A DNA stretch of 17,319 bases from a virus (IMGVR_UViG_2547132281_000005); one strand, 5' to 3'. Counted from the stretch's first letter, positions 4,570-9,037 are shown. Numbers and translations: made by a program. Notes: generated from the letters alone by a model not told the origin.

Positions 4570-4947
4570 CACAACCTCCTGTATTGGACGTACACCAGTC
4601 CTGATAAATATGAGGCTGTCTCGTCAGTGATTCAATACAACTACTGGGTATAGTTTCTATGATTTTGTTCTGTGGAAATGGAAAACAGCAACCAGTCACC
4701 ACCAGCACTTCTTTAAACATGCCAAGTCACACGCAAGCCAACATTATAGTTCCCTTTGAGCGAGCAGATGAAGCTAGCAAAAATATTGATCACTTAGGAT
4801 GCATTACTAACGTTGCTATGTGTTAACGAACAGGGAGTGGGTCATCAGCATAAATATTTATGCAGTAGGTTTCTTTTAGGACTAGATTAATCAAAAACAT
4901 TTAGATAAAATTATAAAATCAAGAAATTGGTGGCAATTAATCTTTAA

Positions 4948-4976
4948 TTGTGCCAGCTGAATTTCGTTATTATAGA
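4948..4976 (+). promoter_or_regulatory. Candidate promoter for the membrane-protein/methyltransferase operon
   Basis: TTGTGC (4948-4953), 17-nt spacer, TATAGA (4971-4976) in an AT-rich region upstream of the GGAGAG SD and ATG at 5011. Confidence 0.3.
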
Positions 4977-5326
4977 AGATTAGCTTTTTTTTGAATGTTT
5001 GGAGAGTAAAATGTTAGAACCACCAAAGAGTTATAATGAAATGTTGCCTATGCTCCATAAGGCGACTTTTATTACTACATTTATATTTTACCTATCATTA
5101 GTCATTTATGGCTACATGCCATTGGTTGGCATTAATGCCAAGTATATCCCCCCCGTTAAAGACTACGAGGAATTTATTAAATGGATATTAACCTTTGGCA
5201 TATTACCAATTGCATCTTCAGTTTTTTGGTCAGTAATTAGTGGAGCTTTAGATCTACATAATAATGTAGCAAAAATTATTGGAATAAGGAAGATGTGGGA
5301 TAGTCATTTAATTATTAAACCATTAG

Positions 5327-6521
5327 GGAAGGTGCGAATAAGTGGGGAAATTCTTCTCGGCTGACTCAGTCATTTCATTTCTTCATGTTTGAGCCGATTT
5401 TTTCTCCCGTAAATGCCTTGAATCAGCCTATTTAGACCGTTTCTTCGCCATTTAAGGCGTTATCCCCAGTTTTTAGTGAGATCTCTCCCACTGACGTATC
5501 ATTTGGTCCGCCCGAAACAGGTTGGCCAGCGTGAATAACATCGCCAGTTGGTTATCGTTTTTCAGCAACCCCTTGTATCTGGCTTTCACGAAGCCGAACT
5601 GTCGCTTGATGATGCGAAATGGGTGCTCCACCTTGGCCCGGATGCTGGCTTTCATGTATTCGATGTTGATGGCCGTTTTGTTCTTGCGTGGATGCTGTTT
5701 CAAGGTTCTTACCTTGCCGGGGCGCTCGGCGATCAGCCAGTCCACATCCACCTCGGCCAGCTCCTCGCGCTGTGGCGCCCCTTGGTAGCCGGCATCGGCT
5801 GAGACAAATTGCTCCTCTCCATGCAGCAGATTACCCAGCTGATTGAGGTCATGCTCGTTGGCCGCGGTGGTGACTAGGCTGTGGGTCAGGCCACTCTTGG
5901 CATCGACACCAATGTGGGCCTTCATGCCAAAGTGCCACTGATTGCCTTTCTTGGTCTGATGCATCTCCGGATCGCGTTGCTGCTCTTTGTTCTTGGTCGA
6001 GCTGGGTGCCTCAATGATGGTGGCATCGACCAAGGTGCCTTGAGTCATCATGACGCCTGCTTCGGCCAGCCAGCGATTGATGGTCTTGAACAATTGGCGG
6101 GCCAGTTGATGCTGCTCCAGCAGGTGGCGGAAATTCATGATGGTGGTGCGGTCAGGCAAGGCGCTATCCAGGGATAACCGGGCAAACAGACGCATGGAGG
6201 CGATTTCGTACAGAGCATCTTCCATCGCGCCATCGCTCAGGTTGTACCAATGCTGCATGCAGTGAATGCGTAGCATGGTTTCCAGCGGATAAGGTCGCCG
6301 GCCATTACCAGCCTTGGGGTAAAACGGCTCGATGACTTCCACCATGTTTTGCCATGGCAGAATCTGCTCCATGCGGGACAAGAAAATCTCTTTTCTGGTC
6401 TGACGGCGCTTACTGCTGAATTCACTGTCGGCGAAGGTAAGTTGATGACTCATGATGAACCCTGTTCCATGGCTCCAGATGACAAACATGATCTCATATC
6501 AGGGACTTGTTCGCACCTTCC
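5327..6521 (-). mobile_element. IS5 insertion sequence, complete, 1195 bp
   Basis: Terminal inverted repeats GGAAGGTGCGAATAAG (5327-5342) and CTTGTTCGCACCTTCC (6506-6521); 4-bp direct target duplication TTAG at 5323-5326 and 6522-6525; contains the transposase ORF. Confidence 0.95.
5473..6453 (-). CDS. insH: IS5 transposase InsH (326 aa)
   Basis: Protein from [36 protein letters not shown]... matches IS5 transposase as I recall it; the track ORF extends 12 codons upstream to 6489. Confidence 0.9.
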
Positions 6522-6911
6522 TTAGCAAAAATTGCAGGCGTTACGAGAAAATTAACTACTGATGAATCTCACAAGGTAATGAGTAAACTGTATTACCCAG
6601 AAGTTAAAGAGTTAAAAGACAAACATTACGTTGAACTTTTCTGGAACAAAGTTTATTACTTTTGGGTTTTCTTTGAACATACAGTAATCGCATTTGTTAC
6701 TATTTTAATAATAAGTATCGCCAAATTAACAAATATATTCTCTGTTACTGGCTCTTTAATTAATCTTTGGTTGTGGATTATTTCTCTTGTCGCATTTGAC
6801 TTCCTTATTTTCATAGCATCAGTTAAACCAAGAACAGAAAGCCAAGTAAGACAAATACCTGATAGCAAAATAAAAGAATTCTTTAACAATAACAATATTT
6901 TTTAAACGAGG

Positions 6912-7571
6912 TTGATTTTGAATTACAAAATAAATGGAATAAACATACGTTCAGAAAATGCAGCGAAACCGCACACTATGCCATCTAACTATCTCTGTAA
7001 ACAGATTGAAAGCACTAATAAAAATGGCAATGCCCTTGATTTTGGATGTGGAAAACTTAGATATTCAGAACAATTAGTAAATAAATTTGAAACTGTGACA
7101 TTTTTAGATTCCAGAAGACAACTAGAAAGAGTGCAAATTATCAGAGGTGTACAAACCACGATTCCAGATTACGTGATAAATAACTATAAGAATGCTAATA
7201 TTGTTTCTTATGAAAATATAGATAAAATAACAAATCATTATGATTTCATACTTTGCGCAAACGTGCTTTCCGCAATTCCATGTGAATCCACAATTCACAA
7301 AGTCCTCAGTGCGATTAGAGAATTATTAAAGAGTGATGGTGAAGCACTGATTGTCAATCAATACAAAAGTTCTTATTTCAAGAGGTACGAGAGCGGTATT
7401 AAACATTTGCATGGGTATATATACCAAAACTCTCGTAATGCTTTCTACTATGGTTTATTAGATGTGGATACTGTAAGTAAAATATGCTCAGATAATAATT
7501 TAGAAATAATAAAATCATGGAGCAAAGCAGGTAGTTCATATGTGGTTGTTGGTAAACATATACATATTTAG
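6912..7571 (+). CDS. TehB-like class I SAM-dependent methyltransferase (about 217-219 aa)
   Basis: Motif I ALDFGCGKL, acidic LDSR, YDFILCANVLSAIP and LKSDGEALIV blocks resemble TehB-type methyltransferases. Likely start is TTG 6918 (GAGG 6908-6911, 6-nt spacer) or TTG 6912; begins 7 nt after the membrane-protein stop. Confidence 0.7.
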   Translation: MILNYKINGINIRSENAAKPHTMPSNYLCKQIESTNKNGNALDFGCGKLRYSEQLVNKFETVTFLDSRRQLERVQIIRGVQTTIPDYVINNYKNANIVSYENIDKITNHYDFILCANVLSAIPCESTIHKVLSAIRELLKSDGEALIVNQYKSSYFKRYESGIKHLHGYIYQNSRNAFYYGLLDVDTVSKICSDNNLEIIKSWSKAGSSYVVVGKHIHI

Positions 7572-7885
7572 TTTATTTCAACAAATTATTAGAAAGAGTG
7601 ATTTGCTTGTTAATTATTAGCTCGGCAGTGCCGGATCAACATGACCCTGCCACTTAGGCCATTGCCGGTTTACCTACTTTTGTAAGGTTCAGCATGAAGT
7701 TTTTATATACTCTTCCTAATATCAATAGTGATGCTCGCTTATGTTAGCTGCTTCTTGTACATAGTAGCCTTCTCCGACAGTACTGCAATGAGCGGAGAGT
7801 AAAAGTCGATAAACAATAAGGAGGTTCACAATAAATATTTCTCGGTGAAACTTTCAAAGCATTCTCTGTTTTGCTAAATCGACAA

Positions 7886-8785
7886 TTATAAATCAACAAC
7901 ATTTAGTGTTATATCAATATTATTTAGCCTTGCAATCTCTGATGAATCACTTGCTATTTTAGCTTTTAATTTATCAATATTAATCATATCTTCATGGCTT
8001 ATATAAACCATATCACCTTGGTTAACTTTAGATTTGTTCACTATGGCTTGAATAACAGACAAATCATCCATTACACCTCTCATAAATTTCACCATGCTTT
8101 GATCTTTGAAGTCAGATATCGATTTTGAGCGTTGCTTACGTTGAATTGTTCCTTTTGTAATTACTTCATTAATTTCTTTTAAACCAGTGAGCATATCAGA
8201 CAGACTGCCTTCGCAACTCATCCGATGTTTTATTGCATTGCGATTAATAATATTGAGTATAATTTCGAGTGAATCTTTATCACTCCATGGATGTAATGAT
8301 GTATAATCATGATGGCGTCGAATGGCGTCAATCATATCCTGGACCATATCTTCATCTGCTTTATCGCAAAGTTCATTCACGAAATAGCTGGGGTCGATTA
8401 TTTTACAATAACTTGGAGTTAGGTATCTTGAGGCTTTACAAAAACCAAAAATATATAAAGTAGAGTATTTATCTTTCAGACTCTCTCCTATTTCATTTGT
8501 TTCCTCAAAAGATTCGATAGTTTTTTTAATTTTTGCTGGACTTGCATTCGTAGTAACTTGAACTGCTATCATGTTTTTATTATCAGCTAAATCAATGGCG
8601 GGAAAATTAACTTTAATCTGATTCATGTTTACCAGTTCACCCATTTTCAGCGCGCGAAACATAAAGATGGTCAATGACTCAATTATTCTTTCCATGTCAT
8701 GAAAGCCTGCCTGTTTGCGTTGCGCGATATAAAGCTGGAGTAGTGCAATATCACTCTGTAAGTTTCTAATAAGTGGATCAATCAT
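7886..8785 (-). CDS. Hypothetical 299-aa protein, AT-rich orphan (candidate defence/abortive-infection gene)
   Basis: ATG at 8785 with AGGA upstream; long uninterrupted ORF, convergent with the methyltransferase. No recognisable catalytic motif (no HExxH, no Walker A, no TM segments). Confidence 0.7.
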   Translation of the reverse strand: MIDPLIRNLQSDIALLQLYIAQRKQAGFHDMERIIESLTIFMFRALKMGELVNMNQIKVNFPAIDLADNKNMIAVQVTTNASPAKIKKTIESFEETNEIGESLKDKYSTLYIFGFCKASRYLTPSYCKIIDPSYFVNELCDKADEDMVQDMIDAIRRHHDYTSLHPWSDKDSLEIILNIINRNAIKHRMSCEGSLSDMLTGLKEINEVITKGTIQRKQRSKSISDFKDQSMVKFMRGVMDDLSVIQAIVNKSKVNQGDMVYISHEDMINIDKLKAKIASDSSEIARLNNIDITLNVVDL

Positions 8786-9037
8786 AGCTAATAATCCTTT
8801 TCAATGAAGCTGGAGGTGTGTTTAACTATTAGTTAAATTTCTATTTTTATAGAAACAAGCTTTACAACTTCATCAAAGTTTCTCAAATCCTAATCCACTT
8901 TGCAAATCCACTAACCATGCTGAATGCTTTCTGTTGTTAAACATATCCGCTGCTGGCACCAAGCAGACAAACACACTAACTCTACCCTACTCCACAAAAG
9001 AGCCAATCAATATCTGAACTAATAAACTTTAATCTCA

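Follow-up and report, generated by a model that had tools for sequence, protein, structure and literature searches.

Two known systems closely resemble parts of the locus reported here. The first is DS-27, which was found with DefensePredictor (PMC13092281, Science 2026): WP_087896215.1, a 299-residue 'SMEK domain-containing protein', was cloned alone in MG1655, was scored 'defensive TRUE, DS-27' (Table S6 of that paper) and lowered the plating of phage RB69 about 700-fold, from 7e6 to 1e4 plaque-forming units (Table S7). Some short-Argonaute systems have SMEK, an Mrr-like nuclease domain, in fusion with APAZ (PMC10810196, bioRxiv 10.1101/2023.06.08.544223, PMC12205087). The second is the gene pair ymfE/ymfD of the e14 prophage of Escherichia coli K-12, which encodes a membrane protein and a methyltransferase. 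Counterparts of both stand side by side in an AT-rich island of the viral contig IMGVR_UViG_2547132281_000005, a stretch of 17,319 nucleotides (nt), called here the window, which matches the chromosome of E. coli TW14425 (NZ_CP127265.1) with 100% identity. The island is probably defence-type cargo made up of two independent cassettes lying back to back: DS-27 and a ymfE-ymfD homologue that would exclude or abort phage.

The nuclease half of the island is already known. The cluster representative given in Table S5 of PMC13092281 is WP_000566847.1, the accession annotated in the window, and the window protein is identical to the tested WP_087896215.1 at 298 of 299 residues, the sole difference being M189V. 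The tested gene was plasmid-borne and alone, whereas the window copy lies in its native prophage beside a ymfED-like pair; otherwise the two are the same. A preliminary description of the window, made from the sequence alone, had rightly placed a convergent gene for a 299-residue protein here, but had called it an orphan with no recognisable motifs, which was mistaken. The protein matches SMEK_N above the curated cut-offs of both Pfam (PF21941, 80.3 bits against a cut-off of 27, 1.6e-22) and NCBIfam (NF033859, 106.4 bits against 30, 4.9e-31), and it also matches the PADLOC model of an Argonaute-associated nuclease (Aga_REase-PNTD1-PNTD2, 1e-20, profile positions 9-143 of 463). All three matches are confined to the first 100-150 residues or so; the C-terminus is a helical domain of about 160 residues. 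That an orphan picked out by eye should be a validated system is a caution for scans for defence genes.

The N-terminal region has the alpha-beta-beta-beta-alpha-beta core and the conserved acidic and lysine residues of the PD-(D/E)xK fold. Comparison of the family profile with the solved Mrr domain of the partner of the Kordia jejudonensis prokaryotic Argonaute (pAgo) gave an E value of 2.8e-12 and a common pattern, E...D (PAID)...QxT...K. As the two share this pattern, the unusual threonine that replaces the canonical lysine is a family trait. With the SMEK/Mrr-APAZ effectors of short pAgo systems (SPARDA-type, as in K. jejudonensis) DS-27 thus shares a homologous N-terminal Mrr-like nuclease domain. 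It differs from them in that it has no APAZ region, that its C-terminal 160 residues form an unrelated helical domain and that the window contains neither an annotated Argonaute nor a long unassigned open reading frame (ORF). A comparison of SMEK with AspBHI has also been made (bioRxiv 10.1101/2023.06.08.544223). Like the type IV Mrr/AspBHI restriction enzymes, DS-27 combines a Mrr-like PD-(D/E)xK catalytic fold with an extra domain in one polypeptide; unlike them, it has the nuclease first, in reversed order, and no recognisable DNA-binding or SRA-like domain. Modified cytosines are a feature of RB69, the one reported target, as of other T-even phages. The C-terminal domain of DS-27 may sense infection or gate the enzyme, and the nuclease would degrade phage or cell DNA.

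Full-length homologues of about 300 residues are solo genes across the Proteobacteria. They were seen in integrase islands; their neighbours include SymE and TacAT, an Abi_alpha gene (Vibrio) and, close by, a SLATT_5 gene (Pseudomonas). The DS-27 gene is not always a single ORF: certain carriers have it in two, or have two annotated proteins in its place, and differ by 1 nt in length (L032:6972-7882; E. coli H67 and H76-H78), which suggests frameshifted alleles.

The kinship of the other two genes with ymfE and ymfD, which the preliminary description had suggested, was borne out by BLASTP. The membrane protein is 60% identical to YmfE (b1138) over 230 residues (E 2e-108) and the methyltransferase 68% identical to YmfD (b1137) over 212 residues (E 4e-113). 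In both prophages a membrane protein of about 231-234 residues is encoded directly before a class I methyltransferase of about 217-221 residues, and in both the pair is cargo that adjoins a defence gene, Lit in e14 and DS-27 in TW14425. The two cases differ in allele, in prophage and in slot, which is the attachment-site end of e14 but a post-replication slot of a lambdoid prophage here, and in TW14425 the membrane gene is broken by IS5.

That the second gene encodes a small methyltransferase dependent on S-adenosylmethionine (SAM) had been read correctly. Its SAM-binding motif I is LDFGCGKLRY, an acidic residue lies in FLDS, and two Pfam families, Methyltransf_12 (35.0 bits, cut-off 30) and Methyltransf_23 (34.3 bits, cut-off 27), score above gathering. 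The earlier label 'TehB-like' is good in the generic class I sense only: the Pfam TehB match is marginal (24.5 against a cut-off of 20.4), and the cut-offs of the TehB equivalogs are missed (NF008992, 29.1 bits against 303; NF008405, 28.0 against 218). The family has strong motifs of its own, namely SENAAKPHT, DFGCGKLRY, NVLSAIPC, NQxxSSYFKKYE.G and SYYG. Neither the protein nor the invariant columns of a 32-sequence family alignment contain the motifs of DNA methyltransferases, (D/N/S)PP(Y/F/W) or the C5-cytosine PCQ/ENV, and the protein, of 217 residues only, has no target-recognition domain. It appears to be an enzyme of the small-molecule or protein type and not a DNA methyltransferase. 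A phmmer search of the PDB returned nothing, and profile searches gave only generic weak matches with E values of at least 0.003 (PKMT, MJ0882, TehB, UbiG), from which no substrate was deduced.

The intact allele of the membrane gene (L002:9612-10307) encodes 231 residues with four hydrophobic helices, at about 20-41, 58-80, 148-172 and 181-208, so the four transmembrane (TM) segments of the preliminary description stand, as does the disruption of the gene by IS5. The loop between TM2 and TM3, of 70 residues, is conserved, helical and basic. Because of this basic character (13 lysines and arginines) the protein is predicted to lie in the inner membrane with both termini inside and the loop in the cytoplasm. 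Family and structure searches found no known family and no structural neighbour. A profile search of 1.84 billion representative proteins yielded some 213 relatives, nearly all of 225-250 residues.

In TW14425 the two genes are co-oriented and tightly coupled, the membrane gene being first. RefSeq starts the methyltransferase at TTG 6918, 12 nt past the membrane stop and 6 nt after the sequence GAGG at 6908-6911. This start is the most likely one; an alternative is TTG 6912, 6 nt after the stop. The translational coupling and the GAGG Shine-Dalgarno sequence previously described are present, but the gap is 12 or 6 nt and not 7. In relatives the genes abut or overlap by 17 nt.

The pairing was examined by running profiles of the three proteins over loci that had been recovered via the methyltransferase from viral contigs, from one genome per species and by individual look-ups. 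The membrane and methyltransferase genes were adjacent in all of the approximately 45 non-redundant loci, over methyltransferase identities from 100% down to 30%, in Enterobacterales, Aeromonas, Pseudomonas, Marinomonas, Colwellia, Microbulbifer, Saccharophagus, Planctomycetota and Dormibacterota. The opposite gene order occurs in three lineages and was seen in two Planctomycetota, one member of the Cellvibrionales and one metagenomic contig (L079). Adjacency that is kept despite a change of order, and at partner identities of 20-30%, is strong evidence that the two proteins work together. A possible fusion of the two was noted in Bradyrhizobium (L073:3852-5273 and L074). There the N-terminal half of the YmfE-like motifs is in frame upstream of the methyltransferase, and the part that should hold TM3 and TM4 is degenerate; decay of the gene, the genome being GC-rich, is the likelier explanation, and the case was not used as evidence.

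The preliminary description had placed all three genes in one cargo island. As a single system they would be of a restriction-modification-like kind, in which self DNA is guarded by the methyltransferase, and DNA that is foreign or unmodified is cut by the SMEK nuclease. The linkage is indeed tight. The pair and the nuclease have identical counts in complete E. coli genomes (151 genomes, 154 places; 146 at 99% identity or more and 5 at 80-90%), and the trio is found again in another lambdoid backbone (ECO21) and on a Citrobacter plasmid. The three proteins diverge in parallel (100/100/100, 91/84/88 and 85/82/83%), and the distance between the convergent genes stays within 321-369 nt. Against this, the methyltransferase lacks the features of a DNA methyltransferase, DS-27 protects when cloned alone, and each cassette is widespread without the other: the nuclease is missing beside pairs that are still 79-85% identical to the TW14425 pair (L003, L052-L054) and beside all pairs at 67% methyltransferase identity or less, and homologues of the 299-residue SMEK protein at 77% identity or less have no pair (Enterobacter, Pseudomonas, Vibrio). 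A restriction-modification trio is thus largely refuted and very improbable.

The homology between loci is also modular. Loci that have the pair alone match over window 4845-7654, ending at L002 11056, and in L049 the match restarts at L002 11128 (window 7726), near the start of the nuclease block. From this modular homology, the separate occurrence of the two parts and the ability of DS-27 to defend alone, we conclude that there are two cassettes and not one system; they were joined within a single enterobacterial lineage and are now carried together, as a mini defence island. That pair and nuclease interact functionally is improbable, and tight physical linkage of two cassettes should not be taken to mean a single system. 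The Citrobacter copy, on the C. koseri IncHI2A plasmid pK820-1 (L084:7001-9589), is a complete trio outside any prophage; its membrane and SMEK proteins show about 90% identity at the amino-acid level. It lies in an accessory region of the plasmid, where a small serine recombinase, a DUF4145 gene and IS4321 flank it.

The only constant neighbour of the methyltransferase is its membrane partner, and the contexts of the pair are otherwise mobile elements and defence islands. Hachiman HamAB adjoins it in Pseudomonas PICF141 and Amphritea (L061:371-3825 and L063:6837-10307), Lamassu LmuB in P. simiae (L067:3479-5236) and Olokun OloAB in Microbulbifer (L026:725-4143). Other locations are an Enterobacter lambdoid prophage (behind O/P), the end of P2-like prophages of Providencia and Enterobacter (behind ogr), a Colwellia island that splits a comM-like gene, a site between insertion sequence (IS) elements beside YoeB/YefM in Marinobacter, and the IncHI2A plasmid. 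At none of the loci examined was the pair in a biosynthetic or transport operon. These contexts count against its being a detoxification module, or one for methylation and export of a metabolite, with no role against phage. The weak similarity to TehB and other small-molecule methyltransferases would agree with such a module, as would the reduced early biofilm of a K-12 ymfD deletion (PMC3105296), but the membrane protein resembles no transporter fold and we consider this explanation quite improbable.

A relative of the membrane protein carries a further domain. P0403 (395 residues; contig L079 = Ga0673078_0010907, 2059-3968) consists of a YmfE-like 4-TM domain (hhalign probability 99%) and a C-terminal TIR domain that resembles Thoeris ThsB (1e-35) and the candidate PDC-S66 (6e-59). 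Its gene begins 3 nt behind one for a methyltransferase of the YmfD family (hhalign E 3e-54), and no other fusion occurs among the 150 best family representatives. The fusion supports a cytoplasmic C-terminus for the membrane protein. In PADLOC-DB 2.0.0 the membrane protein had no match at E<=1 and the methyltransferase matched only mad2 (9.5e-5), over the generic methyltransferase core; nor is the pair among the 118 units cloned for DefensePredictor (PMC13092281 Table S6). These searches support the earlier view that the pair can be assigned to no described system, and so to no described defence family as judged by sequence.

It seems plausible, given this company, that the 4-TM protein and the translationally coupled cytoplasmic methyltransferase form one membrane-anchored complex, and that this complex excludes phage or aborts infection. 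In it the membrane protein would serve as effector or scaffold, with the methyltransferase as the partner that senses or regulates. More speculatively, the methyltransferase might silence the membrane effector by methylation, or report the availability of SAM, and phage interference with SAM or with the complex might then lead to abortive infection at the membrane. A defence role of this kind fits the genomic neighbours. We propose tentatively, and at rather less than an even chance, that the ymfE-ymfD-type cassette, including the y-genes of K-12, is a widespread unrecognised anti-phage system in which a methyltransferase that does not act on DNA docks on a 4-TM effector or scaffold, a TIR NADase having been gained in some lineages. 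The nearest analogy, and it is an analogy only, is Kiwa, which likewise combines a small multi-pass membrane protein (the 4-TM KwaA) with one cytoplasmic partner (KwaB) in defence islands. The present pair differs in having no sequence or fold similarity to any PADLOC model and in having a SAM methyltransferase as the partner, which is not known from Kiwa or similar membrane-effector defence pairs.

The pair therefore belongs to a named but uncharacterised family, and the proposal that it defends is a prediction found neither in PADLOC 2.0.0, nor among the 118 DefensePredictor units, nor in the searchable literature. For ymfD and ymfE, decades without an assigned function, the pairing, mobility, defence-island company and TIR-fused relative give a concrete and testable hypothesis; should the pair defend, a non-DNA methyltransferase would join the parts list of bacterial immunity.

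Several points weigh against a defence island of this kind. The protection recorded for DS-27 is against one phage of the panel only (PMC13092281). A known defence system directly abuts the pair in four of 18 distant loci, a proportion that comes without a background rate, and the TIR fusion is a single metagenomic protein. As a sensor or regulator the methyltransferase would, to our knowledge, be without precedent among small defence systems. A tblastn search of 50,697 sequenced phage genomes (INPHARED), in which the methyltransferase was not included, gave no match to the membrane protein, and for the 299-residue nuclease the same set gave one partial match only (30% of the length, 35% identity, in a Klebsiella phage). 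Knock-outs of ymfD grow normally (PMC12096079), and for the ymfD knock-out sole responsibility for N6-methyladenosine in mRNA was not demonstrated. No functional study of ymfD and ymfE as a pair, and no experiment on the pair, was found in the literature. Finally, K-12 ymfD and ymfE show no SOS induction. Despite the result with sequenced phages, the membrane protein and the 299-residue nuclease are both common in prophage-derived contigs.

The absence of SOS induction is what would be expected of morons expressed in the lysogen, and it accords with a second role for the pair, in lysogenic conversion or superinfection exclusion. Here the membrane protein would present a lipid, quinone or envelope precursor for methylation, and the altered surface or membrane would block adsorption or injection. 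The resemblance of the methyltransferase to small-molecule, lipid-quinone and protein enzymes (TehB, UbiG, the C-terminal domain of OvoA, protein lysine methyltransferases), the obligate membrane partner and the moron positions in lambdoid and P2-like prophages all agree with this. A cytoplasmic TIR domain on the membrane partner fits an envelope-modifying enzyme poorly, however, the pair also occurs outside prophages, beside Hachiman, Lamassu and Olokun, and no glycosyltransferase-like, acyltransferase-like or known lipid-binding fold was found. This role is unlikely, though still to be taken seriously.

The IS5 element in the TW14425 membrane gene has 16-bp inverted repeats at its ends, of which 15 of 16 positions match, and is flanked by a TTAG target duplication (5323-5326 and 6522-6525). 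TW14425 is alone in having this allele among 5,426 complete E. coli genomes; in the 150 other carriers the membrane ORF is uninterrupted. A second, independent insertion, of an IS3-family element (orfA/orfB), was found in a different codon of the gene in an E. coli viral contig (L042:4167-5377). The disrupted alleles thus number two among about 175 carriers, and none is in the methyltransferase. The preliminary description had suggested that loss of the membrane gene would fit a costly or toxic module. With one of 151 E. coli genomes and one IS3-family insertion this is a weak sign of cost, and AT-rich DNA attracts IS elements anyway.

The same insertions bear on whether the pair could be an addiction module, similar to a toxin-antitoxin system, that stabilises mobile elements, with a toxic membrane protein and a methyltransferase that neutralises it. 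Two independent hits in the supposed toxin and none in its partner would be in keeping with this, as would the strict pairing, the translational coupling or overlap and the many kinds of mobile element, a plasmid included. But two disrupted alleles are few, AT-rich DNA is a preferred IS target regardless, and no known toxin or antitoxin domain was found; many modules of this type are, besides, abortive-infection systems, so that the explanation overlaps with defence. As a separate explanation it is improbable. To return to a defence-type pair, the cassette of TW14425 is presumably dead because IS5 destroyed its membrane gene; DS-27 is intact.

The host element, a Qin/Rac-like lambdoid prophage, lies at ompW. 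Read from the right, its genes are integrase, excisionase, a RecE-like exonuclease, dicB, DicF RNA, dicC, a YdaT-like gene, an O-like replication gene and DUF977; left of DUF977 come the island, then hokD/sok, rem and tail-fibre remnants. The position earlier given, between a hok locus and the replication module, is accordingly right. Since it lacks head and lysis genes, this copy of the prophage is cryptic. A more complete sister prophage with the same island, free of IS5, is present in strain MFDS1016424 (NZ_CP106924.1).

The island is AT-rich, as had been noticed by eye: without IS5 its 3,012 nt have a G+C content of 32.6%, against 47.2% for the rest of the window and 53.0% for IS5, and each of the membrane, methyltransferase and SMEK genes lies at 29-33%. 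The block is real, but its limits, previously put at 4740-8800, are moved by homology to 4845 and about 8958 (Table 1). They were set by blastn against loci that bear the trio in other backbones, where L002 9446 to 12359-12370 corresponds to the block. The left edge, 4845, is the joint with the TW14425 prophage backbone, and other carriers share about 45 bp further left. A search for terminal direct or inverted repeats at the cassette ends found none that was convincing, only short AT-rich chance matches, and promoter and terminator scans gave fewer promoter-like sites than shuffled sequence.

Table 1 Features of the AT-rich island (positions in the window)
Feature	Position	Strand	Basis and remarks
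AT-rich cargo block	4845..8958		2.92 kb of island DNA plus the 1.2-kb IS5; blastn homology, G+C content
YmfE-like 4-TM membrane gene, 5' part (codons 1-105)	5011..5326	+	ATG at 5011; sequence and comparison with the intact allele
IS5, 1,195 bp	5327..6521	-	Transposase 5473-6489; RefSeq: IS5 family transposase
YmfE-like membrane gene, 3' part (TM3, TM4, C-terminal tail)	6522..6905	+	hmmsearch with the family profile, E 8e-49
YmfD-like class I SAM-dependent methyltransferase, 217 residues, WP_001373963.1, intact	6918..7571	+	Pfam; 68% identity to e14 YmfD
Junction of the pair and nuclease cassettes	7654..7726		Within the 314-nt convergent intergenic region 7572-7885
SMEK-domain (Mrr-like PD-(D/E)xK) nuclease, 299 residues, WP_000566847.1 = DS-27	7886..8785	-	Convergent with the pair

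The slot next to DUF977 varies among sister prophages. BL21 has nothing in it, CFT073 has small ORFs and 2013C-4081 an IS, and in E. coli SCEC020026 the island is replaced by PD-T7-1 (L080:2030-3379; PADLOC 7e-157), a validated defence system (PMC9519451). This supports the block as accessory cargo, as it had first been described, in a variable prophage slot.

The DUF977 protein that borders the island (9038-9460, minus strand) matches PHROG 142, 'Ren-like exclusion protein' (1.5e-46), so the gene just upstream of the cargo slot may itself have an exclusion function. The window also encodes a second small class I SAM methyltransferase (1296-1964, plus strand; 222 residues, about 40% G+C) among the tail-fibre gene remnants; BLASTP detects no similarity between it and the YmfD-like enzyme (E 2.9). 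Three features score above gathering in Rfam: IS009 (225 bits) at 2062-2260 on the minus strand, inside the tail-fibre assembly region; the sok antitoxin RNA of hokD at 4263-4437, also on the minus strand; and DicF at 12732-12783 on the plus strand.

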